From Candidatus Uhrbacteria bacterium (GTDB lineage: Bacteria; Patescibacteriota; Patescibacteriia; UBA9934), in the NCBI GenBank assembly GCA_018673485.1, contig JABHCP010000015.1, positions 25,529 to 89,528 of the forward strand: a stretch of 64,000 nt of DNA, written 5' to 3'. A model generated the notes under the pieces. That model worked only from the letters and a program-made list of their open reading frames with translations, searched no databases and was not told the origin of the DNA. Position 1 is the first letter of the stretch; every line of letters begins with the position of its first letter. A program made the translations under genes and the position numbers. Shown here piece by piece: positions 4,181 through 64,000 of the stretch.

Positions 4181-4189
4181 TTGCTTGTT

Positions 4190-4254
4190 GAAAATGTTTA
4201 AGTTGTTTATTTCGAAATAAACACTTTAAGCATTTTAGACAATTTAAACATCCT
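4190..4254 (+). promoter_or_regulatory. conserved 5' motif copy 1 (contains 18 bp perfect palindrome GTTTATTTCGAAATAAAC) directly upstream of thrS start
   Basis: TGTTTAAGTTGTTTATTTCGAAATAAACACTTTAAGCAT...TTTAAACAT; near-identical copies at 60607-60680 and 63916-64000. Confidence 0.4.
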
Positions 4255-23466: not shown

Positions 23467-24012
23467 ACATTTAGTATTTAAGTAGATTCCCGCAATTGCG
23501 AGCAACTACTGTATGAATAAGTGCCGTAAGTGTGCCAGAATTGCACTTTTGTGTCAAGATTAGCGGTTTAACTGCGCTGGAGGTGTTTCACCCTCCAGAC
23601 CTCCTGACATACTTTCTTTGTTGGCTCAAAGAAAGTATGCAAAGCCATGGCGGAGCCAGGTCCGGCTCCGCCGGAAAAGAGCCCTGTCAGGGCGTCCCAC
23701 GGCCGAACAGAATGCCGCGGCCTGCAGTCAATGTTTTTGGGTGACTATGAATGGACTGATTGCCAGTTCGGTCGGCAGGCTCCCTCTCAGACGGAGTGGT
23801 TTGACAATGAATGGACGGGGGCTAACTACTTAAACATTGACGGGGGACTGAGAGGGGAAGATGGGGTATGATATTTGATTAGTAGGCCTAGCTTTATAAA
23901 GCCAGGCCTAGGGTCATGCTTATCAAAAAAAGCGGAATCCCCGACCAGTTGATCGGGGCACGGGGCTGTGGATAGAGGTTGAACATCTGTCCACAGGACG
24001 GATTGAGTTGTA

Positions 24013-24402
24013 TCAGGGGCCCTCGGGCTCGTCGGGTTCAGGTTTATCGACCTCAGGTGCCGGGTCGAAGCCATTGTCGAGCTCACGGATCTTGTGTTCA
24101 AGCCATGACACAACGGCACCAGGATCTCTCCTATGTTCCAAGTTGATGATGACGGTGCGCATCTGATCAAGCGCGTAGTTGAGCTGGCGTGCGAGCTTGC
24201 GCTCGCTGGCGGAGGGGACGGTCAGATTCGAGGTCTTGCATCGCTGCTTCTTGATCGTTTTACCACCCAACAGTAGACCGAAAGTAAACAGACACATAGG
24301 GCCTATTAGGTGTGCCATGTCGGGCATTTCCGGCTTGAAGATGGTGTTGAGCAGGGAAGCGAATGCAATTGCGATAAGAACGAGGATTTGAACAAGGATC
24401 AT
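24013..24402 (-). CDS. hypothetical small membrane protein inserted between nusG and rplK
   Basis: 129 aa, N-terminal TM pair, acidic proline-rich tail. Confidence 0.35.
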   Translation of the reverse strand: MILVQILVLIAIAFASLLNTIFKPEMPDMAHLIGPMCLFTFGLLLGGKTIKKQRCKTSNLTVPSASERKLARQLNYALDQMRTVIINLEHRRDPGAVVSWLEHKIRELDNGFDPAPEVDKPEPDEPEGP

Positions 24403-24493
24403 GCTTGCCTCATGTGATATGGAATGAACAGATACACTCGGGAATGAGCGGTAAGTTAAAGTTAGATTGATAGAGGGGGATTGTCAAGTTGAC

Positions 24494-24529
24494 GGCAACC
24501 TCCCCTAGCCCCTCCTTGGGAAGGAGGGG
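24494..24529 (+). repeat. REP-like GC-rich element, copy a (GGCAACC + CCCCTCCTTGGGAAGGAGGGG hairpin)
   Basis: sequence read directly; family of 5 copies. Confidence 0.5.
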
Positions 24530-24544
24530 AATCGAGAAGTGAAA

Positions 24545-30425: not shown

Positions 30426-31535
30426 TCAAAACCCCGTGTATTAGCGAGGGTTCTTGCATTCTAAGTCAAACCGCAATACCTTTAAAAACTTCTAATGGGG
30501 TGAGATAGTTGTGACGTTTTCTTGGCCTGGTATTTATGAGCTTCACATAGCGATCTAATTTTTGTTTAGTTATATTTTGGAATGGACTTCCTTTTGGAAT
30601 AAATTGTCTTAGAAGCCCGTTGGCATTTTCATTAGTTCCTCGTTCCCATGAACGGTATTGGTGTGCGAAATAGACAGCAATTTGTAGGTCTCTTTCAAGA
30701 GTTTCGTGCTCAGCAAACTGTACGCCATTGTCATAGGTGATTGTATGGCATTTTTTCTTTGCAATCTTTTTAAATCGTCTTGTTGTTATCTTTCGTACCT
30801 GTTCTGCTGTTGCCCGTTCAACCTTATCCGCCAATAACAATCCACTCTTTCTATCTACATGAGTAAGGATATGTTTTATCTTTTCTTTTCCAACAATAGT
30901 ATCTCCTTCCCAGTCTCCAATGCGGGAACGATATTCTACAATAGCTGGACGTACATCGATACGTTTCTTTTTAGCCTCTTCTCTGCGTTTTTCACGAATC
31001 TTTGTACCATATCTACGACGATACTTTCCTTTTCGACAACGTAGATACTTTTTTAATTCAGGTTGTTCTTTGTAGATATATTTATAGATGGTTTCATGGC
31101 AGACGCTTGGTTTATTTGGATGGTCTCTTTTCATGCGTCCTGAGACTTGTTCTGGTGACCAATACTTTTTAATCCCCTCCTCAATATATTTTGCAAGGTC
31201 AGATCCAGCTAAAATCTTTCTTCGTGTAGCATTTGAGGCCCTTCTTACTTCAATACGCCTACGTTCTGCAGGTAGGGCTTTATATAGGTTCCCATTTCTT
31301 TTAAGTTCTCGCCCTATAGTTGAACGGCTTCTACCGAGGAATCTAGCAATGTCTCCATTGCTTTCTCCTGCCTGCTTCCAGGCTTCTATTTTTACACGTT
31401 CCTCACGTGTGATATGTTGGTATGGCATCTCTTTGTAGGTTTAGATGAATTGCTTTGACACAACCATCTTACCCACAGGAGATGCTTTTGTTTAAAGGGG
31501 TGTTGCACTTTGAGATAGAATACAGGGTTTTTTGA
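30426..31535 (-). mobile_element. IS30-family insertion sequence (~1.1 kb) with imperfect terminal inverted repeats
   Basis: ends TCAAAACCCCGTGTATT (30426-30442) and AATACAGGGTTTTTTGA (31519-31535, reverse complement TCAAAAAACCCTGTATT); single full-length transposase ORF inside. Confidence 0.85.
30466..31428 (-). CDS. IS30-family transposase
   Basis: N-terminal HTH ITREERVKIEAWKQAGESNGDIARFLGRSRSTIGRELKRN and DDE region DNGVQFAEHE...ERGTNENANGLLRQFIPKG. Confidence 0.9.
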   Translation of the reverse strand: MPYQHITREERVKIEAWKQAGESNGDIARFLGRSRSTIGRELKRNGNLYKALPAERRRIEVRRASNATRRKILAGSDLAKYIEEGIKKYWSPEQVSGRMKRDHPNKPSVCHETIYKYIYKEQPELKKYLRCRKGKYRRRYGTKIREKRREEAKKKRIDVRPAIVEYRSRIGDWEGDTIVGKEKIKHILTHVDRKSGLLLADKVERATAEQVRKITTRRFKKIAKKKCHTITYDNGVQFAEHETLERDLQIAVYFAHQYRSWERGTNENANGLLRQFIPKGSPFQNITKQKLDRYVKLINTRPRKRHNYLTPLEVFKGIAV

Positions 31536-35983: not shown

Positions 35984-36076
35984 ATTTTTGTCATTCTGAG
36001 CGAACGGAGTGAGTCGAAGAATCTGTTTGAGAGATCCTTCGACTTGGCCTTCGGCCTCGCTCAGGATGACGAATTA

Positions 36077-37147
36077 TTATTTTTCAAGCACGTCGTCGAT
36101 ATTTCTGTCAGCCAATCGAAGTTTGGTAATAATTTCTTCAATTTGTCCGTCGAGGATGCCTGGCAAGTTGTGCCAAGACTCTTTTATTCTGTGGTCAGTA
36201 ATCCTGTCTTGTGGAAAGTTGTATGTTCTAATTTTCTCAGAGCGATCTCCAGTTCCAATTTGGCTTAGGCGTTCTTCTGATAGTTCCTTTTGCTTCTTTG
36301 CCTGTTCATGAGCGAAAATGCGAGCGCGCATTATGTTTAGCGCCTTTTCCTTGTTTTGGTGCTGCGATCGTTCACTTTGGCAGTAAACCTGAATCCCAGT
36401 TGGTTTATGTGTCATTCTGATCGCTGACTCTGTTTTGTTCACGTGCTGACCACCAGCGCCCTGAGCTGTTGTTGTTTCAATTTCAAGTTCTGATGTATCA
36501 AGGTGAAATTCTTTTTCTTCCACCTTTGGCAAAACCGCAACTGTAACCGTTGAGGTGTGCACTCTTCCTTGTTTTTCAGTTTCAGGAACACGTTGTACGC
36601 GGTGTACTCCTGATTCATATTTCATATCTCCATAACTTCCTAGTCCACGAATTTCAAAGACTACTTCTTTAAATCCGCCAATATCATTTTGGCTTTGTGA
36701 AACAAGGTCGGTTTTACGTTCGGTTGTTTCTGCGAATCTGCTATACATTCTAAAAAGGTCTGTTGCAAAAAGTGCGGCCTCATCCCCACCTGCCCCGGCG
36801 CGAATTTCGATGATCGCGTCGTTGTCATCTATTGGGTCTTTAGGTATGAGCGCTAGTTCCAGTTTTTGCTTTTGCTCAGGAATTGATGTTTCAAGCTCGC
36901 TGATTTCACTTTTTGCTAGGTCTTGGACTTCTGCGTCTGGATCACTAAGTGCATTTTTTGCAGCCTCAAGATTTTTCTCACTTTCCAATATTTTAGCTGA
37001 GAGTTCGAGTATGTGGTTGGCATGCTGAAAATCACGGTTAGCCTGAGATAATTTTTCTTGATCACCAATAACGCCCGGGTCCATTAGTAGGGCGTTTAGT
37101 TCTTTGATTTTATTGGCGTAGGTGTCGTGAATTTTCTGTATATCCAT
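36077..37147 (-). CDS. prfA: peptide chain release factor 1
   Basis: GGQ motif [25 protein letters not shown]. Confidence 0.93.
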
Positions 37148-37228
37148 ATAGATTAATTATAGCATTGTATGAGATTACTTTTGCATAAATAAAACACCCG
37201 GGCTCCGGGTGCTATATTTAAATTTGAT

Positions 37229-37525
37229 TTACTCTTCAGTTTCCTTGAGTTTCTTTTCTGCCTTTTTTGCTGCTCGAGCTGCTTTTTTAACTGCCTTTGC
37301 CTTACTATCAAGTATTTCTGTTGATTTTTTGTCTTGTCGTGCTTTGAATTTTTCAACTCGACGAGCAGTGTCCACAATTTTTTGCTTACCTGTATAAAAC
37401 GGGTGGCACAGTGAACAAAGCTCAATGTTGATTTTTTCAACAGTTGAACCGATTTTTACTTCGTTTCCACAGGCACATTTGATAGTAGCTTGTGCGTGGT
37501 AGGTTGGGTGAATAGCTTTTTTCAT
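37229..37525 (-). CDS. rpmE: 50S ribosomal protein L31 with a Lys-rich C-terminal extension
   Basis: [23 protein letters not shown]...[12 protein letters not shown]; start at the internal Met. Confidence 0.85.
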
Positions 37526-37706
37526 AGCACTGAATTTCGTCGAGATTGTAGCATGAGCCCTTTTTGCTGTCAATAAACGATCCTGGCCTATGGACAGGAT
37601 GCTTGGTATGGTGTACTTTAGAGCGTTCTGCGCGGAAAATCGTGCGGTACGACACGTCCCTTTTACCCCAATGTTCGAGAAAACCCACGCACGGAGGAGC
37701 AATTCA

Positions 37707-39902
37707 ATGCGTACGATTTATCTGATCCTGGTCGCTATTCTGGTGGCCGGCTGTCTCCCCGCTCTTCCGGAGTATGACCCTTCGGTAGAGAAGTACGATC
37801 TGCCACCGGCAGACGCTGATGGTGATGGCTACGAGTCTGATGTCGACTGCGACGATGACGATGCCAGCATCTATCCTGGCGCAGAAGAGATCTGCGACGG
37901 CCAGGATAACGACTGCGACGAGCTCACCGACGAGGATGTGGCTCAGAGCTTCTACCTCGACAGCGACGGTGACAGCTATGGCGATCCCAACATGATCATT
38001 CAGGCCTGCGAGGCCTCAAGCGACTACGTTGACAACGCTGACGACTGCGACGATGATGATCAGGACACCTACCCGGGTGCACCTGAGCGCTGCGACGGCG
38101 ATGACAACGACTGCGACGAGCAGATCGACGAGGACCTGGTGGAAACCTGGTATCTCGATTCCGACGGCGATAGCTTCGGCAACGTCGAGGAATCGATCGA
38201 ATCCTGTGATCCGTCAAGCGCCTATGTCGCGAATCCTGACGATTGCGATGACGCTGACGCCGAGGTTTACCCCGAGGCTGATGAGTATTGCGATCTGATC
38301 GACAACGACTGCGACAGCATGGTCGACGAAGACGATGCACTCGATGCCCAGACCTGGTACTTCGACGAGGATGGCGATGGCTACGGGCTCGACGATGAAT
38401 CGATCCAGAGTTGTCAGTGGCCTGAGGGCTATGCTCGCCACAGTGGTGACTGCGATGACGGCGACATAGCCTTCAATCCCGCAGCACTCGAGGACGATTG
38501 CACCGATCCCAACGACTACAACTGCGATGGCTCAACCGGCTATGCCGACGATGACAGCGATGGTTTCGCAGCCTGTGAGGAGTGCAATGACTCAGATGCG
38601 AGCATCAATCCCGCCGCGACCGAGATCTGCGACGAGCTCGACAACGACTGTGATGGCCTCATCGACGATGAGGATGACAGCCTCGACGCATCGACCGGTT
38701 CGATCTTTTACCTCGACGGCGACGGCGACGGCTACGGCGACTCAAGCGTGGCCGACGATGCCTGCGAGCCCTTGTCTGGCTACGTGGCCGACGCGACCGA
38801 CTGCGACGACACCGATGCGGACATCAACCCTGACGCGACTGAGGTCTGCGACGAGGACGATGTCGATGAGGACTGCAACGGCTACGCTGACGACGATGAT
38901 GTCAGTGTGGATGTGTCCACGCAGACAGATTGGTTCGATGACGGCGACGGCGATAGCTACGGTGACGCCGCTTCGCTCGTCACTGCGTGTGAGTCCCCGG
39001 ACGCACATGCAGTCACCAACGATTCGGACTGCGATGATACCGACTCCACAATCAACCCCGATGCGACCGAGGTCTGCGACGAGGATGATGTCGATGAGGA
39101 CTGCGACGGTCTGATCGATGACGACGACCCCAGTGTCGATGTTTCGACCGGCCCCACCTTCTACCTGGACTGGGATGGCGACGGCTACGGTGCCGATGAC
39201 TACACGGTCACGGCTTGCGACGCTCCTTCTGGGTACGTTGAGGACAGCACAGATTGCGATGATGCTGACGTAGACGTGAGTCCCGCTGCGACCGATGAGC
39301 AGGCCACGGCCTGGGATGAGGACTGCGATGGAGACGATGGACGCGCAGACGGTTACGAGTACGTCACCAGCTATTATGGTAACTGGTATGCCTCGGGCAG
39401 CAGCTTGGTGGAGGAGTCCACCTCCAATGAGTTTTCCACTCTCGAAAGTGGAATTACTAGTTGGTACGATGTTGCTGGTTCCAGCCTCGTGGTTTCCACG
39501 CATGTGTTCTCTTCGGTCTATTCCGGTGAAATGGATGTGATCGAGTTTCCTGAGAACACGGGGACACATCCGCTCGATGGATGTGTACGCGCGGATGATC
39601 TTTCCACTAGTCTGAGCGCAGGAGTGGATTACGGGTTCGTCTTTGTGGTGGCCAATACCAGTACCACTGGTTCGACAACCATCTTCGTAGCCGAAGGTGA
39701 TGGATACGAGTACCATGTCTCTGGAGAGGGGGATTACATCATGGGTGCGCTTGCGCTCAATGCTGGTGATGAGGTCTTGGTGGGCGAGGCTTTCACTGCC
39801 TCGGACAGCTCTGAAGATCTGTTGATCTGTGCCTTGGGTAACAGTGGCGCTGATGAGATGGACTTGCGGATTAGCCACTTTGGTATCTACTCGGTGAACT
39901 AG
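37707..39902 (+). CDS. high-GC lipoprotein built from Cys/Asp-rich putative metal-binding repeats (myxobacterial-type DxDxDGYxxxxDCDDxDxxxxPxAxExCDxxDNDCD modules)
   Basis: lipoprotein signal [16 protein letters not shown]; at least 8 repeat modules; GC content far above flanking genes. Confidence 0.6.
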
Positions 39903-40189
39903 AGCGATGGCTCAGAAAACAACGAAAACCCCCTGATTCAGGGCCTAGCGGTGCTCCGCAAAGGTTGCTGGATTGGGGGATTGTGCTTTGGGCAATGTTG
40001 AGCTTCCAAGGTAGCTATTGACAAAATAGCTAAAATTTGGTAAAAAAAGGCGTTATTTTGTAGTGTTTTTTGTTTTATGTAAGTGGTATCTTTCCTTTTA
40101 CATAAGGCCAAAAGCTTCTTTCACATCTACACTTTCCCCCATTGCCACGCTGGCCTGCGTGACAATAAACCCCCAGCAAGGAGAATGTC

Positions 40190-42058
<1,869 letters not shown>

Positions 42059-42157
42059 ACCCAGCCCCAGACACGGCCCTCGAGCCGGCAGATGGAAAGC
42101 ATGCACTGCATGTGGACCTCTGCCGGCTCTTCTGCTTTTCTGATACAATATAGGTGA

Positions 42158-43687
42158 ATGATTAATCTGAAGGAGACTTATCAAGCAAGTGATCAATACG
42201 CACGCTTTGCCGCGTTTGTTCTTTTTGGTATTTCACTCGCAGCTTTGGTTGGCTCAATAGTATTCTCCCCATCTCTTATTTTGGGAGTTGTGTTTGCGAT
42301 AGCGGTTTTGGTGATGAGTTTTGTGCGGCCAACTTGGTCATTAGCGTTCCTGCTTGTTTATCTGCCATTTGAGCCATTTCTGCTGAAGTGGATTTCAGAT
42401 GACATTTATTTATATGCCCGTTATTTTTCAGAGTTATTAATTTATTTGCTCGTTGTTGTTGTTTTTTGGAAGTTTGCCAGTGGTCAGCTTAAGTTAAAAC
42501 AGTCGCCAATCGACGTTATATTCATCCTATTTTTAATTGCATTATTAACATCAGCGCTTGTAAATTTTGTTGATCCAACAGTCGCAGTGCTAGGAATTCG
42601 TCAGATCATTCGCTTTATTCTTTTGTTCTTTGTGACGATTTATTTAAATCCAACAGACAAATGGATCAAGTCTTTGGTTTATATAATGTTTATTATTTTA
42701 GGATTTGAGGTTTTGCTCGGAGTAGGGCAAGTGTTTTTTGGAGAAATGCTAGATAGCTTTTTACTACCATCAGAAGCCCGAGCTTTTGGTGAGATTCAGC
42801 TTACATCAGGAACTGTACAATTTTGGGACCATGGACAGCGGATTTTTGGAACTCTTGGTCGTTATGACAGGCTGGGAACTTTTATGGCATTTTTTATGCT
42901 GATCGGAGTTTCAATGCTTTATGAGCCGAGACTGCGTAAGTATCGATCGCTGTTGATTTTCTTACTAGTTCTTTCTATTTTTACGTTAGCAATGACATAT
43001 TCTCGCTCGGCGTGGTTTGGTTTTGTTTTGGGATTTTTGTTTATTGCCATATGGGCCAAGAAAGATAGGCGAGTAGTATGGGCCGTAGGAGTGGCTTTGG
43101 GCGCGATCGCTGTATATCTAGCTATATCTGGGCTTATTGTAAGCAATTTATTTGACGTTGCCGATCAAACCGTAATTGAAAGGTTTTTTGAAGCGTTTTC
43201 TTATGAAAGGTGGCGAGGTGAGTATTATGGATTAGGGCGACTTTATTGGATTGTGCAGACTGTCATTACCGTAATTCCGGCAGCGTTTATTTTTGGATTT
43301 GGTCCAGCAACATATGGTGGAGGTGCAGTGGCAGCATTGGGAAATACAGAAGTTTATGATCAGCTAGGATTGTCATTTGGTGTTTATGGAACAGAGGGTT
43401 ACATTGATAACAATTGGTTTAGTTTGTGGGGTGAGACTGGAACACTTGGATTAACAATATACATAGTGATGTATGTGACTTTGTTTTTGATATGTTTAAA
43501 AGTATGGCGAAGGTCAAAAAAATCATTTACTAGAGCTTTAGCACTTGGCGTAGCAGCAGCAATGATTGCTATTGTACTTAATTCATTTTTAGCTACTTTT
43601 TTGGAAGTGAGAACCCTAGCTCCATACTTGTGGGTATTTACTGCATTGGTAGTTATCATGGGGGTACGCGAAAAATTAATTGAGTAA
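42158..43687 (+). CDS. O-antigen ligase / Wzy-like polytopic membrane protein
   Basis: ~12 TM helices; block [25 protein letters not shown] typical of O-antigen ligase family. Confidence 0.55.
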
Positions 43688-43695
43688 GTTTTATT

Positions 43696-44919
43696 ATGAA
43701 GATAATACATGCTCACAAATATTATTATCCACGTGCAGGCGCTGAGCGCTACATGTTGGATTTAATGAAGATGCAACAAGAAGACGGGCATCAGGTTGTG
43801 CCATTTTGTATGCATTATCCAAAAAATTTAGAGTCCACTTGGTCGGAATATTTTGTATCTGAACTTAAAACTGAAACTGGAACAAGTAGTCCTTGGCATG
43901 CCTTGAAACAAACTTGTCGATCTTTATGGTCGCTTGAAGCTAAAAGAAAGTTTGAGGCTTTGGTTGATGTGATCGATCCTGACGTTGTTCATGTTCATAA
44001 TATTTACACACACATTTCGCCTTCAATGCTCAAGGTTTGTCAGAAGCGGGGGATTCCAGTTGTAATGACTGTGCATGATTACGCTCCGGTGAGTGCGAAT
44101 TATTCGCTGTGGGACCATGGTCGCACAATGAATCTAGAAAAAATCGGACTGTTTGCAACGGCCCGTACCAAATTTATTAAAGGTTCTTATCTTAAGACTT
44201 TGGTGTTAGATGTAATTTTGACTTGGCAGAGATTCTTGAAAATGTACGAGAAACGCGTTGATAAGTTTTTAGCAAATTCAAAGTTTACAGCAGCAGTATT
44301 AGTTAGAGCTGGTTTTAATCAAGATAAAGTAAAGACGCTGTATCCATTTACACAACTTCCAACAGAGACTGATTATAAGGATGATGGTTATGTTTTATTT
44401 TTTGGCAGACTTGAAGATTATAAAGGGGTGCAGTTATTGATCGAAGCAATGAAGAAGTTTCCTAATACGAAGTTAAAAATTGCAGGAACTGGAACTTACG
44501 AGCATGAACTTCGAGAATTATCAAAGGGAATGGCTAATGTAGAGTTTTTAGGATTTGTGTCCGGTCAGGCTCGTGAAGATTTAATTAGAAAGGCAAGGGT
44601 GTGTGTGGTGCCATCAATTTGGTATGAGCCATTTGGTTTAGTTGCGGTGGAGGCCATGATTCGCAAGACTCCAGTTATAGTCTCAGACATCGGAGGGCTC
44701 AAAGAGATTGTTGAGCCTGGTGTTAGTGGTGAAATATTTAGAGCAGGGGACAGTGAAGATCTTGTGGATAAGATAAGGTTGTTCATACAGGATCCAAACT
44801 ACGCTGAGTCTTTTTCACATGGCGCGCACGATAGAGCATGTGAGATTTCAGATCCTCAGGAGCATTACGCAAATATTATGCAAGAATATGGATGGTTGAT
44901 AGAGAATGGGGAATTGTAG
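43696..44919 (+). CDS. glycosyltransferase family 1 (GT4-type)
   Basis: C-terminal EPFGLVAVEAMIRKTPVIVSDIGGLKEIV. Confidence 0.8.
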   Translation: MKIIHAHKYYYPRAGAERYMLDLMKMQQEDGHQVVPFCMHYPKNLESTWSEYFVSELKTETGTSSPWHALKQTCRSLWSLEAKRKFEALVDVIDPDVVHVHNIYTHISPSMLKVCQKRGIPVVMTVHDYAPVSANYSLWDHGRTMNLEKIGLFATARTKFIKGSYLKTLVLDVILTWQRFLKMYEKRVDKFLANSKFTAAVLVRAGFNQDKVKTLYPFTQLPTETDYKDDGYVLFFGRLEDYKGVQLLIEAMKKFPNTKLKIAGTGTYEHELRELSKGMANVEFLGFVSGQAREDLIRKARVCVVPSIWYEPFGLVAVEAMIRKTPVIVSDIGGLKEIVEPGVSGEIFRAGDSEDLVDKIRLFIQDPNYAESFSHGAHDRACEISDPQEHYANIMQEYGWLIENGEL

Positions 44920-46292: not shown

Positions 46293-47489
46293 CTATTTAC
46301 TGATTAGGTCTGGAGTTTTTACGTATGAAAGGTCTAGGTGTTTTATTGTATCGAGGTGGTGCAGGCCGATGTTTCCAGCGAATAGTAGTTTTTGAACGTC
46401 AGGATTTTCAATGTCGGTCTTGCGGATCTTTTCAAGCCCGGATCTGTATATGTGATCCTTACATGTCCCCAGTCCTGGTTTGTTTGGATTTGTAATTCCT
46501 CTGTAGGCGCGCATGCAAAGTTTCCATACACGACTTTGTTGCTCTTCTTTGGTGACAGATCGCCCAACCAATTTATCAAGTGCCATTCGAGCTTTTAACA
46601 ACTTTTGAAATGTTTGATTGAAATCATGCTCCTGTGTAAGTGCACAGGCGTAGCTTCCCCAGAAGCCAGAATCAAATTGCCTTGGCTTATCTCCTTGCTT
46701 CATTTGAAAGTAAAGAGCCAAGCCTTCGTCGGTTTCTATATAACTGTCGAGTCCAATTCTTAAAATGTGCAAAGGGCTGTTCATTCCATTTTGAGTACGC
46801 AGGGCGTGGATTTCGATTTCATGTATGAGTAAACGTTTTGCACGTCCATGCGAGGCTTTAAATTTTCTAGGGATCCAGATGGTGGCTGTATTTTTACTGC
46901 GACCTCGACTGAGCTTTACATTTGGTTGATCTGTGAATTTTATTTTCCAGTTTTGCATTTCATAATAATCCAAAACTGTCTGTACTTGCTGCGCAAACAT
47001 TTCAGCATTAATAGGTTTCTGTTTAGCTTTAAAATTTGAGCTTGGTGAAATCATCCTACTTAATTCATTCTCAAGTTCAGTTTTATCGCATTGGTGAGTT
47101 CCAAATAATTCTCTGGCTATCTTTTCTACTGTGCGGTCATCACTGGCCTTGATTGCCACGATCATGTTAGCCCTTGTTTTTAGCTCTGACAATTTTGCAA
47201 TGTAAAGGTCACGAATCCAATCTTCTGTTTCCATTTTTCCAATATCTGTTTTGCACTCTTCTAGTTCTTTCAGATAATTTTCAATGTCAAAATCCATTGC
47301 CCGCGTATAAGAAAAAACAGGGTTTTTACCACTTAGTAAAAATTCCTGCTTTTGCACCTTTGTATCTTGCGGATCAGGTTTTATTAGCTTGAAAAATGGA
47401 AAAATTGGCAGCTTGTAAAAGCGCTCAAAAAGTTCTTGGTCAAGTTTAGTATGTGACAATCCCGCCATATGAAGAAGCCTTTGTATCAT
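46293..47489 (-). CDS. DUF1704-like protein with HExxH and xEGLA motifs (putative metallopeptidase)
   Basis: HEIEIHALR and ETDEGLALYFQ. Confidence 0.5.
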   Translation of the reverse strand: MIQRLLHMAGLSHTKLDQELFERFYKLPIFPFFKLIKPDPQDTKVQKQEFLLSGKNPVFSYTRAMDFDIENYLKELEECKTDIGKMETEDWIRDLYIAKLSELKTRANMIVAIKASDDRTVEKIARELFGTHQCDKTELENELSRMISPSSNFKAKQKPINAEMFAQQVQTVLDYYEMQNWKIKFTDQPNVKLSRGRSKNTATIWIPRKFKASHGRAKRLLIHEIEIHALRTQNGMNSPLHILRIGLDSYIETDEGLALYFQMKQGDKPRQFDSGFWGSYACALTQEHDFNQTFQKLLKARMALDKLVGRSVTKEEQQSRVWKLCMRAYRGITNPNKPGLGTCKDHIYRSGLEKIRKTDIENPDVQKLLFAGNIGLHHLDTIKHLDLSYVKTPDLISK

Positions 47490-49296
47490 AAGGAATGGAA
47501 GTTGTCACCCCTGAGGCCCAAGAAGAAATAAAGCTCTGTGTCCATGCATCTGTAGCATTTACTGATGTTTGACCAAGTAATATTGGGGTTGTTTCAAGCT
47601 GATCTTCACTTGGAGTTATAGCTACTTCAAAAGCAATTCCCACCACCGTGCTTGTTGGTGGTAAGGTTGGATTGAGGGAATTGATAGTCCACGTGACGGT
47701 CCCGTTTTCTGAGTCTATAGAACTTCCTGTGGACACACTCTGCCTGCCAGTTAGCTCAACGTTCGTTCCTAAGTCAGCGTTAATCGAAAGGTTCTCAAGG
47801 TCATTGGTTGTTCCGCTTATATTCCAGAAGATCCAATATTTTGTAACCTCATCAACGGCAGGTGGAATAGGTCCACGCCCCAACTGATCTCCATTTGGTC
47901 CCCAGTAACGCCCAAATGAACTCAACGTAATTGGTGAAGTGAGAGGGGAGTCAAAGCTTGAGCCAAATGTATTTACTGTAATGAGCTCATCATTTGGTGT
48001 GAATGAGAATTGTGCCGAAGCTGTTGTGGTTATGTTTATTGATTCGTAAATATCAGTAGCTGATCGTGAAAGAGAGCTATTGTTTGGCAAGATCATAGTT
48101 ATCGATCCATTAGCGCCAGCATTTAAATTTTCGATTTGATTATCAAAGTAGTAATACCCATCATTGTAAGATCCACCTTCTATTCCAGATGTACCGAAGA
48201 TATTTATATCATCTGATATTCGAAGTTCAATATTGGAAAGTTCGTAATCGCTCACGTTCTCATATTGAAGTTCAATCGTTGTTGACTCTCCTGGTATGAT
48301 CGAGCTTTCTTTAACTGCATGCGATAGTTGCAGTGGAGTTGGTAGAATTCCAATAACATCAGTCAGCTTTGATTGATTATATTGCGCTGTGTCAAAAATA
48401 AATGATGGATAAAAATCAAATGTTGAATCATCTGCAGATCCGAGTTGGCCGGTGAATTCTATCACTCCAGTTTCTCCAGGTTCGATTCCATCAACGTAGA
48501 ATTTTGCGTTTGATTGAAGGGCGGGGGCGCTCGATATCAATGAAAAGCTTTCTGGCCAGTCAGGCTCAATGATTAATTCAGGAAAGGTGACTGAACCAGT
48601 GTTCGTGTAGCTGATCGTTCCTTCAACTAGTTGATAGGCAACGAGGTGTTCGGGCAGCGATAGTTCCAGGGCAAGTGCTGAGCGAATTGGTTGGAAGATA
48701 TGTTCTTTGACTTTTGTGTCTTCAATTTCATCCTCTGAATATATATAGTTTAACGTTGTTGTAAAAATCTGATCACCACCAACGTTGCCAAACATTGTTC
48801 CTTGCACGTGAATGTATCCATACTGCGTTGGTGCAATATCTCCGATGTCGAATGTTAGCGTGCTAACTTCTTCTACATCGGTATCGATATTTGCCAATTC
48901 AAAATGTTCTGGCAGCTCAAACATGAGACGAGTATTTTTAATAGTCTCATCACTATTATTTTCGTATCTAAAGGTTAGTGTAGATAGATCCCCGGTGATT
49001 ACCTGCTCTGGTGCGACTGATGCATCGATTACAATTAAGTCAGGTGTATTTTTTGGAAAGACGAGATATGCGACAGCTGTGATTGTTAAGATAAGAAATC
49101 CAATTCCCACAATATCCAATGCTTTGTGCAATCTCCCACGATGTTTAAGGTAGTTGCCTTGCATGAGTAGCTTGATGGGGTCAGATACATGCTTACCTGC
49201 TTGTCGGCGAACATTTAGAGAACAAACAAGCAGGTGCTTTTTTGTTTTTGGGTCAATTGTATCCTCGCAAATCAGTTGCGGATCTTTTGTGGTCAT
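47446..49296 (-). CDS. large membrane-anchored surface protein with beta-rich repeat domains
   Basis: start moved to MTTKDP because upstream codons are read through a REP-like element; TM IVGIGFLILTITAVAYLVF. Confidence 0.45.
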   Translation of the reverse strand: MTTKDPQLICEDTIDPKTKKHLLVCSLNVRRQAGKHVSDPIKLLMQGNYLKHRGRLHKALDIVGIGFLILTITAVAYLVFPKNTPDLIVIDASVAPEQVITGDLSTLTFRYENNSDETIKNTRLMFELPEHFELANIDTDVEEVSTLTFDIGDIAPTQYGYIHVQGTMFGNVGGDQIFTTTLNYIYSEDEIEDTKVKEHIFQPIRSALALELSLPEHLVAYQLVEGTISYTNTGSVTFPELIIEPDWPESFSLISSAPALQSNAKFYVDGIEPGETGVIEFTGQLGSADDSTFDFYPSFIFDTAQYNQSKLTDVIGILPTPLQLSHAVKESSIIPGESTTIELQYENVSDYELSNIELRISDDINIFGTSGIEGGSYNDGYYYFDNQIENLNAGANGSITMILPNNSSLSRSATDIYESINITTTASAQFSFTPNDELITVNTFGSSFDSPLTSPITLSSFGRYWGPNGDQLGRGPIPPAVDEVTKYWIFWNISGTTNDLENLSINADLGTNVELTGRQSVSTGSSIDSENGTVTWTINSLNPTLPPTSTVVGIAFEVAITPSEDQLETTPILLGQTSVNATDAWTQSFISSWASGVTTSIPYDTKASSYGGIVTY

Positions 49297-49312
49297 ATGT
49301 GATGCGGTTTGT

Positions 49313-49419
49313 CCCTCCCCCTTCCCAAGGGGGAGATGGAGGGGGTTGCCAGTGAACTTAATTTGATCGAATTTGATCAAATGGCAACCACCCCTTACCC
49401 CTCCTTGGGAAGGAGGGGG
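49313..49419. repeat. inverted pair of REP-like GC-rich elements (copies b and c) separated by ~30 bp
   Basis: CCCTCCCCCTTCCCAAGGGGGAGATGGAGGGGGTTGCC ... GGCAACCACCCCTTACCCCTCCTTGGGAAGGAGGGGG. Confidence 0.5.
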
Positions 49420-49424
49420 TTAGA

Positions 49425-51398
49425 TTAAAAAATCGATAAGGTAAAAACGTCTTGTGTGAATGCGATGATTTCAGCGATGCCGTCGCCATCAAGGTCGGCC
49501 GTTGAGACTTCGGCGCCAAGGCCGTCGTATGTGTCAAAAGCCCAGAATGAATCCATTACTTCCTCACCCTCGTTGTTGAAGGCTTTTATTTCTGGCGCGC
49601 CTCCAAGTCCTGGACCAGTAATTATTTCATCTATTCCGTCGCCATTAATATCACCAGCGGCAACATTCACACCTCCACGGAAGTCTGGGTCATACGCAAA
49701 GAATCCAGGATTAATTAATGCACCGTCTTTATTGAACATTCGAACATGTGGTCCACCCTCTGTTCCGGCTCCACAGATGATTTCATACCAGCCATCGCCA
49801 TTTAAATCACCAATTGAAACATTAACACCTCCTCGATAAACTTCGTCGTATGCAAAGAAGCCAGGATTAATTAACACGCCGTCTGAGTTGAATATTCTGA
49901 CGTGTGCACCTCCACCGTCTTCAGTACCAGTTACAATCTCCACCGTTCCGTCACTTTCCAGGTCTCCAACTGAAATATTTATTCCGCCAGTATAATTTTG
50001 AGTGTAAGGATAAAAGCTAGCATGCAAGCTACCATCGTTGTTGTAGATAAATACTTGGTTGATGTCAGCTACTACCGTTTCACTAAGACCGTCGGCATTA
50101 ATGTCCGAGGTAACAACCTGAACACCACCGATGTAATCCTCATTATAGGAGAAGAATCCGGTTCTGTATGTTTCACCACCACCGTTGAATACTCTGGCAA
50201 AGGCACCATTTAAAAATACGCCCCCAATAATTTCATCAAGAGGCCTGACGAGGATTGCTCCGTCTTCTGATTCAAGTGTGATTCTGGAGATGATTGATCC
50301 ATCGTTAAAATCTGAATCTTGAGTTCCGTGCAGTTTTTCAAAATCACCATTAAGTTTTATGGTTTGCTCAGAACTTGTTGAGTTAACGATTACTTTTCCA
50401 TTTGTGAATTCTCGACTCCAAACTCCATCGTCTTCTTGTGCCCCCTCCTTAGCGGATCCGATATATGCGTCGTATTCGTCATACCACCAAAGCTGAGCGT
50501 GTGACTGGGTGCCATGGTCAAAGCCGAAAAATCCTTCACCTAAAAGTGTGCTTGATAACCCAAATCTAACTTTTTGATAGTCATCACTGTTACCCGTGTT
50601 GTTTGTGTCACTGTTTAGAATGATGACCGGGTCGTATGAGACTGTGTTACCTAAAGCTAAGTAGTTACCAATATTTGTTCCCCAGGAGCCATCTTCTTCC
50701 CACGGAGTAGGGAAGCTCTCAAACATACGACCATTCACATATGGAGCATAGTCTAAGTTTGAGCTTCCATTAGAAATGATGATTTTTTCAGACCCAATTA
50801 AAGATCTAGTTGTTGAAAAAAGATCTGCATAGGCATTGCGCCAAGAGCCATCAATGTCAGATGAGCCATTTGCAAGATCTAGATCACCAACCCAGCTAAT
50901 TGAGTCATTAACTTCATCGTAAAAAACACCATCCCAATAGTCATTATATAAAACCTCGTATGCTACAAATTCGGCTAGATAATCTCCCCAACCAGATGTG
51001 AGGTCGAGTGCTTGCGTGCCTGGCCATATGGAAACATCTGATCCATTGGTTTCATTGAGCCAATAAGGGTCTTGGATTCCGCTGTAAAGTTCGCGGTGAA
51101 GTTTGTCTTGCCAAATGTCGTTCCAACTCACAGTTGGTATGTAGGCGAGAATTTTTATGTCTGGATTGAGGTCGCGAATTTCATCTGAGAAGTTGGGATT
51201 GTACACCTGTGCTTCTGACGGTATAACGATGAGATCGTATTTTGAGAGTGATTCAAGTGTTTGGTTGTCATCAAGTGTTGTTCCAGAGAGCAAAAAATAA
51301 TTCGCCGTTTTAATGGCGTTCTGGTCTTGCGTGAAAACTGCTGCCAGGGGAACTAGCAGAAGGATTAGAAGTGCGATTGTAAGAAATGATTTTTTCAC
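49425..51398 (-). CDS. secreted protein with N-terminal glycoside-hydrolase-like domain and C-terminal FG-GAP (integrin-alpha-like) repeats
   Basis: signal MKKSFLTIALLILLLVPLAAVFT; repeated FG-GAP-like GDLNGDG..EII blocks. Confidence 0.55.
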   Translation of the reverse strand: MKKSFLTIALLILLLVPLAAVFTQDQNAIKTANYFLLSGTTLDDNQTLESLSKYDLIVIPSEAQVYNPNFSDEIRDLNPDIKILAYIPTVSWNDIWQDKLHRELYSGIQDPYWLNETNGSDVSIWPGTQALDLTSGWGDYLAEFVAYEVLYNDYWDGVFYDEVNDSISWVGDLDLANGSSDIDGSWRNAYADLFSTTRSLIGSEKIIISNGSSNLDYAPYVNGRMFESFPTPWEEDGSWGTNIGNYLALGNTVSYDPVIILNSDTNNTGNSDDYQKVRFGLSSTLLGEGFFGFDHGTQSHAQLWWYDEYDAYIGSAKEGAQEDDGVWSREFTNGKVIVNSTSSEQTIKLNGDFEKLHGTQDSDFNDGSIISRITLESEDGAILVRPLDEIIGGVFLNGAFARVFNGGGETYRTGFFSYNEDYIGGVQVVTSDINADGLSETVVADINQVFIYNNDGSLHASFYPYTQNYTGGINISVGDLESDGTVEIVTGTEDGGGAHVRIFNSDGVLINPGFFAYDEVYRGGVNVSIGDLNGDGWYEIICGAGTEGGPHVRMFNKDGALINPGFFAYDPDFRGGVNVAAGDINGDGIDEIITGPGLGGAPEIKAFNNEGEEVMDSFWAFDTYDGLGAEVSTADLDGDGIAEIIAFTQDVFTLSIF

Positions 51399-53632: not shown

Positions 53633-53667
53633 TAACGATTCTATCTGGATGTGATCAAGACCCAGGT

Positions 53668-53700
53668 CCCCCTTCCCAAGGGGGACGACAGGGGGTTGCC
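53668..53700 (-). repeat. REP-like GC-rich element, copy d
   Basis: CCCCCTTCCCAAGGGGGACGACAGGGGGTTGCC. Confidence 0.45.
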
Positions 53701-53857
53701 ATTGGTCGCATTCGATAGAAACGTCTATACGTTTCTATCCCACTTGGTTCTTAGGAGCCTTGCGGGGCCTTAAATAAGGTTCAACCCTGAGATATCGCCC
53801 GAAAGGTCGAGGGCGCATGCCCAGTGATATCTCCTACTATTAAATAGAAAGGACTAA

Positions 53858-58233: not shown

Positions 58234-58290
58234 TCCCCCTCCTTTTCCTGCCTGCCGGCAGGCACGGCAAGGAGGGGTTAGGGGTGGTTA
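58234..58290 (-). repeat. REP-like GC-rich element, copy e (longer variant with inner palindrome TGCCTGCCGGCAGGCA)
   Basis: CCCCCTCCTTTTCCTGCCTGCCGGCAGGCACGGCAAGGAGGGG ... GGTTGCC. Confidence 0.4.
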
Positions 58291-58348
58291 TTTGGTTGCC
58301 TCAAATTCCTAAATCAGCTAAAATGAAGCCATAATTAGTTTATATTTT

Positions 58349-60606: not shown

Positions 60607-60680
60607 TAAATTGATGAAATTGTTTAAGTTGTTTATTTAGAAGTAAACACTTTAAACATCTTAAACAAGTGAGGGCTCGG
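60607..60680 (+). promoter_or_regulatory. conserved 5' motif copy 2 upstream of the epimerase gene
   Basis: TTGTTTAAGTTGTTTATTTAGAAGTAAACACTTTAAACATCTTAAACAA. Confidence 0.4.
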
Positions 60681-63915: not shown

Positions 63916-64000
63916 TATTGTTTAAGTTGTTTAAAATGCTTAAAGTGTTTATTTCGAAATAGACAATTTAAATATCTTCAACATTTAAACATTTTGGAAT
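63916..64000 (+). promoter_or_regulatory. conserved 5' motif copy 3 (rearranged variant) at the window edge
   Basis: TTGTTTAAGTTGTTTAAAATGCTTAAAGTGTTTATTTCGAAATAGACAATTTAAATATCTT. Confidence 0.35.

Follow-up and report, generated by a model that had tools for sequence, protein, structure and literature searches.

The motif at five intergenic sites

The stretch of DNA analysed here, 64,000 nt of Candidatus Uhrbacteria bacterium (GCA_018673485.1, contig JABHCP010000015.1, positions 25,529-89,528 of the forward strand; hereafter called the window), carries a family of short GC-rich elements at five intergenic sites (c1 to c5, Table 1). c1 lies 12 nt past the canonical terminator of nusG and borders a 0.95-kb segment specific to the window, c2 and c3 form an inverted doublet at 49.3 kb, and c3 begins 5 nt past the stop codon of a GHL15/FG-GAP gene (49425-51398) when an extra base pair at 49419 is counted. 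All five copies listed in the original prediction, which had been made from this sequence, were found, with corrected ends for c5 (to 58300) and c4 (from 53667), and its picture of a dispersed family placed between genes, similar to repetitive extragenic palindromic (REP) sequences and bacterial interspersed mosaic elements (BIMEs) and including an inverted doublet, is supported. The open reading frame (ORF) 47446-49380, which runs through c2, is over-extended as suspected, its 616-aa orthologue fitting a start at ATG 49296; GC-rich stop-free motifs of this kind lengthen ORF calls. The heptamer GGCAACC, present in every copy, showed no enrichment by itself (7 sites in the window against 5.5 expected), five of the seven sites being inside the copies and the other two within the coding sequence of a glycosyltransferase gene.

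Read with GGCAACC first, c1 is GGCAACC TCCCCTAG CCCCTCCTT GGG AAGGAGGGG, c2 is GGCAACC CCCTCCAT CTCCCCCTT GGG AAGGGGGAG, c3 is GGCAACC ACCCCTTA CCCCTCCTT GGG AAGGAGGGG and c4 is GGCAACC CCCTGTCG TCCCCCTT GGG AAGGGGGA, whereas c5 resembles c3 with a 24-nt nested hairpin added in the loop and GGCAACC shifted by 4 nt. The copies had been taken for GC-rich hairpins; the hairpin stands, whereas its plain nature does not, because a third arm that was overlooked earlier makes the element an intrastrand triplex motif. This arm consists of the 8 nt separating GGCAACC from the stem together with AACC of GGCAACC, and it mirrors the stem. On the G-rich strand, each unit runs in the order of pyrimidine (Y) arm, 3-nt loop, purine (R) arm, 3-4-nt linker, G/A/T arm and GCC (for type A: Y arm, loop, R arm AAGGAGGGG, CTA, GGGGAGGTT, GCC). 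The G/A/T arm is the reversed, mirror image of the purine arm and is antiparallel to it, and GGCAACC is the complement of the third-arm end plus the conserved GCC tail.

The third arm follows the purine-motif reverse-Hoogsteen code at 8-9 of 8-9 positions without a mismatch in all five copies: G stands opposite G-C, A or T (both found) opposite internal A-T, and T opposite the two loop-proximal A-T pairs. Stems vary among the copies through compensatory changes, and in every collected member the segment between GGCAA and the stem is an exact mirror of the pyrimidine arm after a 3-nt linker (for instance, GGCAA-CCTCCCC-TAG-CCCCTCC, GGCAA-CCCCCTC-TAA-CTCCCCC, GGCAA-CCCCCCT-TTA-TCCCCCC, GA-CCCCTCC-CGG-CCTCCCC and GA-CCCCCTCC-CGA-CCTCCCCC). 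Where a T interrupts the C-rich arms, its position p in the stem arm and q in the upstream arm are linked by q = 8 - p in at least four arm types, which excludes a direct repeat or an alternative Watson-Crick pairing of the upstream C-rich segment, since both would predict a constant shift. Moreover, the AA of GGCAA, which never varies, corresponds on the G strand to a TT facing A-T pairs, indicating that the purine motif fits and the pyrimidine motif does not.

In the published definition of class II ITxF, pyrimidine, purine and reverse-Hoogsteen blocks lie on one strand, with stems of 6-15 nt and loops of 1-6 nt (PMC4666352). c1-c4 fall within this definition (8-9-nt arms, loops of 3 and 3-4 nt), and c5 does so in its arms, its 24-nt loop 1 with a nested hairpin exceeding the loop limit. 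Nested hairpin insertions are tolerated by triplex motifs (window 58245-58268; L087 302-352 and 5989-6050; L229 2867-2927; L133, L142, L202-L207): in some Patescibacteria copies they measure 24-35 nt and lie inside loop 1, and in many high-GC lineages a 12-20-nt GC hairpin, e.g. GGCCCGAAGGGCC, lies inside the linker ahead of the third arm. Judging from the joint conservation of three arms and from the published biophysics of the Escherichia coli relative, the copies are very probably class II (purine-motif) intrastrand triplex motifs of the BoxC kind.

A strict scanner, which demanded a purine-only R arm, a perfect Y arm, a loop of 3-45 nt, a linker of 2-5 nt and at most one third-arm mismatch and ignored GGCAACC and the loop sequence, returned exactly the five copies from the window, all with 0 mismatches, and 0 sites from 40 dinucleotide-preserving shuffles. 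Among the matches listed, the Patescibacteria loci held 49 elements (41 distinct) of 8 purine-arm types, each type with its own mirror arm; the third arm was perfect in 38 of the 41 distinct elements, whereas 2000 permutations of the partners gave 8.8 on average and 18 at most. In 110 further unrelated loci, 58 hairpins of 21 arm types had a perfect mirror arm (permuted mean 8.6, maximum 18), and the third-arm base was A 57, T 89 and G 3 times opposite A, and G 367 and A 4 times opposite G. As the innermost hairpin register was kept in this second run, its sensitivity is lower and near-symmetric arms also pass a 'direct' code (29); weight is placed on the permutation contrast and not on mirror versus direct. 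Three-way covariation of this kind would be expected under selection on the triple helix itself. With many arm subtypes, in which the third arm shifts with the base pair that it would read, nature supplies evidence of triplex selection that the near-invariant E. coli family cannot give.

Table 1. Coordinates and parts of the five copies and of the doublet spacer in the window; arms are given on the G-rich strand
Feature	Position	Strand	Parts
c1, solo, type A	24494..24529	-	Y arm CCCCTCCTT (24529-24521), loop CCC, R arm AAGGAGGGG (24517-24509), linker CTA, reverse-Hoogsteen arm GGGGAGGTT (24505-24497), tail GCC (24496-24494)
c2, type B, left half of doublet	49315..49350	+	Y arm CTCCCCCTT (49315-49323), loop CCC, R arm AAGGGGGAG (49327-49335), linker ATG, reverse-Hoogsteen arm GAGGGGGTT (49339-49347), tail GCC (49348-49350)
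c2/c3 spacer, 32 nt, AGTGAACTTAATTTGATCGAATTTGATCAAAT	49351..49382		separates the two inward-facing GCC tails
c3, type A, right half of doublet	49383..49418	-	Y arm CCCCTCCTT (49418-49410), loop CCC, R arm AAGGAGGGG (49406-49398), linker TAA, reverse-Hoogsteen arm GGGGTGGTT (49394-49386; T opposite A-T pair), tail GCC (49385-49383)
c4, solo, type D	53667..53700	+	Y arm TCCCCCTT (53667-53674), loop CCC, R arm AAGGGGGA (53678-53685), linker CGAC, reverse-Hoogsteen arm AGGGGGTT (53690-53697), tail GCC (53698-53700)
c5, solo, type A	58236..58300	+	Y arm CCCCTCCTT (58236-58244), 24-nt loop 1 with nested hairpin (58245-58268), R arm AAGGAGGGG (58269-58277), linker TTA, reverse-Hoogsteen arm GGGGTGGTT (58281-58289), displaced tail GGTTGCC (58294-58300)

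Distribution and turnover of the copies

The family is not confined to the window and occurs in at least eight other Patescibacteria metagenome-assembled genomes (MAGs). Among the matches listed, members lie in Uhrbacteria JACQSJ01, CALRGL01 and JACQWJ01, in MAG DeMMO3_34, in the Patescibacteria bins Modern_marine.mb.212 and FW215_bin.11, and in CAYVLY01 and CAZELN01, which are labelled Gammaproteobacteria and yet are syntenic relatives of Uhrbacteria. The latter two assemblies, GCA_964452565.1 (L114, CAYVLY010000003.1) and GCA_964513275.1 (L231, CAZELN010000016.1), are titled 'uncultured Gammaproteobacteria', probably by mislabelling; both show gene-for-gene synteny with this window and with the Uhrbacteria locus L075 at 82-90% protein identity. 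NusG of the window is 91% identical to that of Candidatus Uhrbacteria GW2011, and a Candidatus Uhrbacteria MAG encodes a protein, HN358_02595, with 100% identity to the DUF5667 protein of the window. All 36 nt of c1 recur unchanged in other MAGs, among them a motif in L075 that borders directly on the 5' end of a DUF559 gene.

Scanning of the genome collection with the pattern GGCAACC N10-16 CCTTGGGAAGG gave at least 107 loci, where about 120 would be expected by chance in 596 Gb by our own arithmetic. The real members are only those that continue into the full hairpin, and these cluster in Patescibacteria MAGs. Two of the chance-match loci contain triplex families of their own, namely L071 (Synechococcus sp. 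H55.6; CCCCTCTCCC..GGGAGAGGGG..GGGGTGAGG) and L052 (a Bifidobacteriaceae MAG; CCCCCTCTC..GAGAGGGGG..), which fits a wide spread of this kind of element. Scans of viral contigs for the type A and type B motifs of the window gave 0 matches.

Copies have been gained or lost between related genomes, all four sites of the window being empty in relatives. The c1 site is empty in L111-L113 (NusG 88-96% identical), where no motif was found in 55 kb; the c2/c3 doublet (~120 nt) is absent from L114 and L115, in which the flanking genes lie 3-10 nt apart; alignment shows c4 as a clean ~41-42-nt insertion in a hairpin loop, the hairpin being kept, without the motif, in L114, L115 and L116; and c5, which like c1 lies close behind a terminator, has no counterpart in the orthologous spacer of L114 and L115. 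Since CAYVLY01, the source of L114, bears copies of its own elsewhere, the family appears to be active, or at least turning over, within the clade. We are fairly sure that the copies are insertions which turn over at the DNA level independently of transcription. The segment at the edge of which c1 lies (~0.95 kb, window 23600-24540) sits between the nusG terminator and the rplK promoter and is absent from L111-L113; it contains an orphan ORF (24013-24402, 129 aa, no Pfam match) and terminator-like hairpins of its own.

Other features of the window deserve mention. An IS30-family transposase gene (HTH_38 and rve; 30466-31428, minus strand) lies between gyrB and ftsW with no triplex motif near it. 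A second intergenic repeat family, unrelated to the triplex motifs, comprises three AT-rich near-perfect palindromes of about 58 nt (4185-4251, 60620-60668 and 63928-63983), built on TGTTTAAGTTGTTTA / TAAACA..TTAAACA. Upstream of a gene for a 1404-aa surface protein, a leader of ~110 nt (53745-53857) is strongly conserved in L114, L116 and L115, being kept in L115 although the neighbouring protein is only 57% identical; with its long hairpin CCTGAGATATC...GATATCTCC and a box AAATAGAAAGGAC, and without a match in Rfam, it is a candidate cis-regulatory RNA. Lastly, a GC-rich island at 36000-44000 (0.51-0.53, against about 0.43-0.45 elsewhere) shows long antisense ORFs and two genes (37590-39902 and 40190-42058) for large proteins in which MopE-like Cu-binding repeats occur.

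Association of the motifs with DUF559 genes

The loci richest in motifs, L075 and L066, contain small genes of DUF559 (PF04480, Vsr-like PD-(D/E)xK), and all three of these genes lie between inverted motifs. In L066, the DUF559 ORF fills the gap between the GGCAACC tails with 5 nt to spare at its start and 1 nt at its stop. In cassette 2 of L075, the left motif is of type B and the right one of type A with the tails inward, matching both the window doublet and a gene-less doublet of L075, and the right motif shares a 36-nt identity with c1. In L066 and L075, a DUF559 gene holds the B-to-A or C-to-A inward-facing position in which the window doublet has its 32-nt spacer. The window itself has gene-less copies only, three solos and the c2/c3 pair, which keeps the cassette geometry.

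A repeat-blind test, in which an alignment of three DUF559 sequences retrieved 80 metagenome loci by protein alone, gave the same association. The strict scanner found 99 motifs within 250 bp of DUF559 genes versus 16 in the remaining 273 kb (2.65 per kb near DUF559 versus 0.059 per kb elsewhere), and in loci with both flanks present, 42 of 68 were positive (28 two-sided) versus 3.6% of random positions. A relaxed scanner, which allowed longer linkers, many with a nested hairpin, found a motif within 250 bp in 63 of the 80 loci (34 two-sided) versus 7.0% of random positions. The loci are diverse (65 clusters at 70% identity, 55 of them positive; GC 31-70%), and the arms near DUF559 vary by lineage and include E. 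coli-like CCCTCTCC arms, arms similar to TMECO, as the E. coli family has been named, adjoining DUF559 genes in loci such as L150, L160 and L167. In the commonest layout, the upstream motif is on the gene strand and the downstream one on the opposite strand, so that the third arms point toward the gene (17 of 31 two-sided cases), and the same layout was seen at thirty DUF559 loci on viral contigs. Several of the IMG/VR contigs L202-L225 (6-8 kb) have triplex-motif doublets between most genes, not just around DUF559, and resemble cassette arrays. It can be said with high confidence that DUF559 genes and triplex motifs are physically associated far beyond chance.

The association extends to E. 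coli. In MG1655, the DUF559 gene ycjD (b1289) has BoxC #9 168 nt downstream, and its last codons, TCA CCC TCT CCC TGA, make up a BoxC pyrimidine arm that is followed by a decayed purine arm; with 18 BoxC loci and roughly 3,600 intergenic regions, we estimate the chance of finding a BoxC beside the single ycjD at ~1%. Between ycjD and BoxC #9 (K-12 NC_000913.3 1351240-1351406, L118) lies a degenerate DUF559 3' end of ~70 nt, GGAGACGGTGCTGGAGAATATTCGGCAAGGTCTGAACCG..., which hints at a second cassette, now decayed. A 2026 study reports ycjD at the fabI-sapF site, where eefRABCD is found in other phylogroups (PMC12817139), so that the locus would be a replacement scar.

A graded series of junctions was found in the cell-wall (dcw) cluster of Uhrbacteria, in which a 395-aa gene, PBP2 and MurE follow one another. 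In L231, the genes abut at both junctions; in L230, a solo motif upstream of PBP2 is preceded by CTAAGAACTCATAA, a 14-nt remnant of a DUF559 3' end that matches the last codons of the DUF559 gene of L075, CTAAGAAACTCATGA; in L229, a full cassette occupies the upstream junction only; and in L075, cassettes occupy both junctions. The deletion derivative in L230 is the intermediate expected if solos derive from cassettes by internal deletion.

As to the protein, NCBIfam names it just 'DUF559 domain-containing protein' without a function, and PADLOC gave weak domain-level matches only. Against solved structures, the DUF559 profile matched the uncharacterised 3hrl (E = 7e-31) and, weakly, 3r3p (E = 0.038), a mobile-intron homing endonuclease and the only functionally characterised solved structure that it matched. 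A survey of PD-(D/E)xK proteins places VSR, DUF559 and the 3r3p intron endonuclease in one group (PMC3424549). No literature linking DUF559, ycjD or BoxC to each other was found, most subscription journals lying outside the search; as far as could be found, both the covariation evidence for a triplex and the DUF559 association are new.

Proposed explanation, rivals and known systems

We favour, with a probability of about 0.65, the explanation that the copies are a dispersed class II intrastrand triplex family and most likely gene-less derivatives of a selfish DUF559 cassette. According to this proposal, single-stranded DNA of a copy would fold back twice, into a 9-bp Watson-Crick hairpin and then with its third arm antiparallel in the major groove (G.G-C, A.A-T, T.A-T), and the triplex may form transiently in vivo on DNA that is single-stranded during replication or repair. 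The cassette would be a DUF559 gene for a Vsr-like PD-(D/E)xK endonuclease between two inverted triplex motifs, and the nuclease would recognise or cut the folded or paired motifs and thereby drive their copying in a homing-like or REPIN/RAYT-like manner. The window copies would then be relics, that is, solo ends and one 'empty' inverted pair, which could stall polymerases and destabilise their surroundings. As the copies are insertions relative to close relatives and their orientation is not linked to transcription, any action should be at the DNA level.

Among the other explanations, those at the RNA level fare badly. The original prediction had seen in the stem a self-pair of Shine-Dalgarno (SD) and anti-SD sequences, CCUCCUU with AAGGAGG; this stem (CCCCTCCTT/AAGGAGGGG) is present in c1, c3 and c5 only, whereas c2 (CTCCCCCTT/AAGGGGGAG), c4 (TCCCCCTT/AAGGGGGA) and most family members, with eight stem variants, have no AGGAGG. 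SD sequences are hardly used in this genome, as had been said (a 4-mer SD core, GGAG, GAGG or AGGA, at -20 to -4 in 4 of 39 genes versus 11.6% of random 17-mers), and a titration of ribosomes or of the 16S 3' end by a self-paired RNA hairpin could appeal to this; yet the pairing is not conserved and orientation is unbiased, so that the titration idea is unfounded and hardly credible. The resemblance is an incidental by-product of arm composition, because the triplex code requires homopurine/homopyrimidine arms. Plain REP/BIME hairpins, stabilising or terminating RNA 3' ends or moved by a REP-associated tyrosine transposase (RAYT), with a third arm that is incidental, would account for intergenic, GC-rich palindromes in solo and inverted-pair arrangements, for the sense orientation of the G strand in four of the five window copies and for the closeness of c3 to a stop codon. 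They are nonetheless improbable, since the third arm covaries with the stem over at least eight arm types, for which a hairpin-only function has no need. Across loci, 12 copies among the matches listed are opposite to and 11 in the same orientation as the flanking genes (confidently intergenic cases only, as a crude ORF caller flagged many copies of GC-rich loci as 'in ORF', probably through over-extended ORFs), which deprives the four-of-five sense bias of meaning. No T-run directly follows the hairpin at any of the five copies, c1 stands just past a canonical terminator, PIT elements, as the E. coli repeats are also called, have no terminator activity in E. coli and purine-motif triplexes do not form in RNA (PMC4666352); this argues against an RNA-level signal and makes the predicted terminator or mRNA-stabiliser role unlikely. 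Nor was a RAYT partner seen in the window, where no Y1_Tnp match occurred among about 38 proteins scanned, and the copies have neither a GTAG-type REP head nor a match to Rfam 15 at gathering score in the window; lax-threshold matches to the doublet were to microRNA-precursor models only and were rejected as a spurious effect of a long hairpin. Still less probable than plain hairpins is a G-quadruplex (G4) on the G strand, or an i-motif or pyrimidine-motif triplex on the C strand, as the structure under selection. Each unit does have several G runs (e.g. GG A GGGG cta GGGG A GG), circular dichroism (CD) alone cannot tell a triplex from a parallel G4 (PMC4666352), and a C+.G-C triplex on the complementary strand is possible in principle; against this, G4 and i-motif need only G or C runs and not an A/T interruption placed in mirror position in the third arm, nuclear magnetic resonance (NMR) of TMECO indicates a triplex and not G4 (PMC4666352), and, for a pyrimidine-motif triplex, T would be required opposite A-T in place of the invariant AA, along with six adjacent protonated cytosines.

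A more serious rival, which we still regard as unlikely, holds that the motifs are structural DNA serving the host, such as pause sites of replication or recombination or sites for nucleoid or repair factors, and that DUF559 is a host repair nuclease which processes them as Vsr does T:G mismatches; the linkage of gene and motif would then reflect functional coupling or local gene conversion and not selfish spread. The relation of DUF559 to Vsr (PMC3424549), the finding of Holder et al. that TMECO is tied to local genomic instability together with their proposal of an adaptive role (PMC4666352), the conservation of ycjD in E. coli phylogroups A, B1 and C (PMC12817139) and the strong conservation of arms over distant Patescibacteria, with the 36-nt identity of c1 to other MAGs, all speak for it. 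On the other hand, no site is needed: close relatives do without a motif at each of the four window sites and at both dcw junctions, and 55 kb of relatives whose NusG is 88-96% identical contain none; cassettes split genes that otherwise abut, and the other solved relative of DUF559 is a homing endonuclease.

Several observations weigh against the derivation from a DUF559 cassette, or against a triplex, and must be set beside the evidence above. To our knowledge, no nuclease activity or substrate of DUF559 has been described. Nearest-neighbour folding of the DNA gives the 9-bp hairpin alone (-9.3 to -10 kcal/mol) and leaves the third arm free, and the Watson-Crick folding energies are unremarkable (z -0.9 to -2.5), a measure that is uninformative for a G/C-rich sequence. 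The window holds no DUF559 gene or remnant detectable by tblastn, by a 55-sequence profile against the six-frame translation or by flank alignments; an 11-nt DUF559 match in a flank alignment was rejected, as it sits in a leader that is conserved also in motif-free relatives. With the relaxed scanner, 17 of the 80 DUF559 loci lack a motif, several of them showing variants by eye. No target-site duplication is visible at the clean c4 insertion, which, with solos that have no second terminal repeat and an IS30 transposase gene without a motif nearby, also speaks against the mobility in the manner of miniature inverted-repeat transposable elements that had been suggested. In E. coli, an in vivo footprint with dimethyl sulphate (DMS) was negative, and the elements had no effect as promoter or terminator or on conjugation (PMC4666352). 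Finally, the gene may have homed into pre-existing motif pairs, in which case the motifs would not be its ends.

For the cassette derivation, the steps are of unequal strength. We give somewhat less than even odds to the tentative proposal that the motifs are acted on and spread by the nuclease, the copies in the window being non-autonomous derivatives; it is drawn from the geometry, one deletion intermediate and the kinship with homing endonucleases. With similar odds, DUF559, including YcjD of E. coli, may be the missing protein partner of BoxC/PIT-type repeats, the two forming a class of selfish elements not recognised before, from Patescibacteria to Enterobacteria and viral contigs, in which a structure-specific nuclease would copy ends that are selected for folding into a purine-motif triple helix. 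The kind of triplex repeat now extends to Patescibacteria, whose ~1 Mb genomes have little room for junk. As DUF559 is flanked by motifs in most sampled lineages, including ycjD of K-12, the purpose of BoxC and the role of DUF559 become testable in E. coli.

Intrastrand triplex repeats of the BoxC/PIT type have been on record since the 1990s as an unexplained kind of bacterial repeat, for which no function, way of spreading or protein partner is known. For BoxC of E. coli, later descriptions use the names PIT elements (Hoyne et al. 2000, as cited in PMC4666352) and TMECO (Holder et al. 2015, PMC4666352), the latter with the pattern CCCTCNCCC N3-6 GGGNGAGGG N3 GGGNGAGGG, that is, a 9-nt C arm, 3-6-nt loop, 9-nt G arm, 3-nt loop and 9-nt G arm. 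MG1655 has 23 copies, always intergenic and without strand bias, including five inverted pairs, each of a type A and a type B; the isolated strand forms a triplex by CD and NMR (Tm 70-82 °C), TMECO loci are more variable than control loci, and the authors found no link to flanking genes (PMC4666352). From the coordinates of the E. coli pairs, four of the five share the geometry of the window doublet, in which the third arms face each other.

The window family is alike in its one-strand layout (C-rich arm, 3-6-nt loop, G-rich arm, 3-nt loop, G/A/T arm), in the base code (G.G-C, and A or T opposite A-T), in a length of about 35 nt, strictly intergenic placement, tens of copies per genome and no strand bias, in inverted pairs of two different subtypes with facing third arms (type B and type A in the window doublet), and in presence or absence among close relatives. 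It differs in its arms (CCCCTCCTT, CTCCCCCTT, TCCCCCCTT etc.), which have a TT/AA foot next to the loop, in the loop itself (CCC) and in the TTGCC tail; the window arms CCCCTCCTT, CTCCCCCTT and TCCCCCTT depart from the TMECO pattern, which makes the family new in sequence although known in architecture. Its host belongs to the small-genomed Patescibacteria, for which no report of triplex motifs was found in the literature searched; many arm subtypes coexist in it, in contrast to the E. coli family, and an association with DUF559 has not been reported for BoxC.

REP/BIME and REPIN-RAYT systems likewise consist of short GC-rich intergenic palindromes, solo and in inverted doublets, and in REPIN-RAYT, one small nuclease-type gene is flanked by inverted repeat copies while many gene-less copies lie elsewhere in the genome. 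The present family has a mirror-symmetric third arm and no GTAG head, and the gene flanked in relatives is DUF559 of the Vsr-like PD-(D/E)xK type and not an HUH/Y1 transposase. The DUF559 gene resembles the Vsr-like (EDxHD) homing endonuclease genes represented by I-Bth0305I (3r3p), which the DUF559 profile detects, in being a small free-standing ORF for a putative nuclease, set tightly, within 1-15 nt, between conserved flanks and polymorphic among relatives; it differs from them in lying outside any intron or intein, and its flanks are repeated structured motifs at many genomic sites and not a unique target gene. With H-DNA, the motif shares the homopurine/homopyrimidine mirror-repeat logic and the Hoogsteen-type pairing of a third strand, whereas its mirror and inverted repeats share the middle arm, so that one strand supplies all three strands of the helix, and its 8-9-nt arms are too short for typical supercoil-driven H-DNA.

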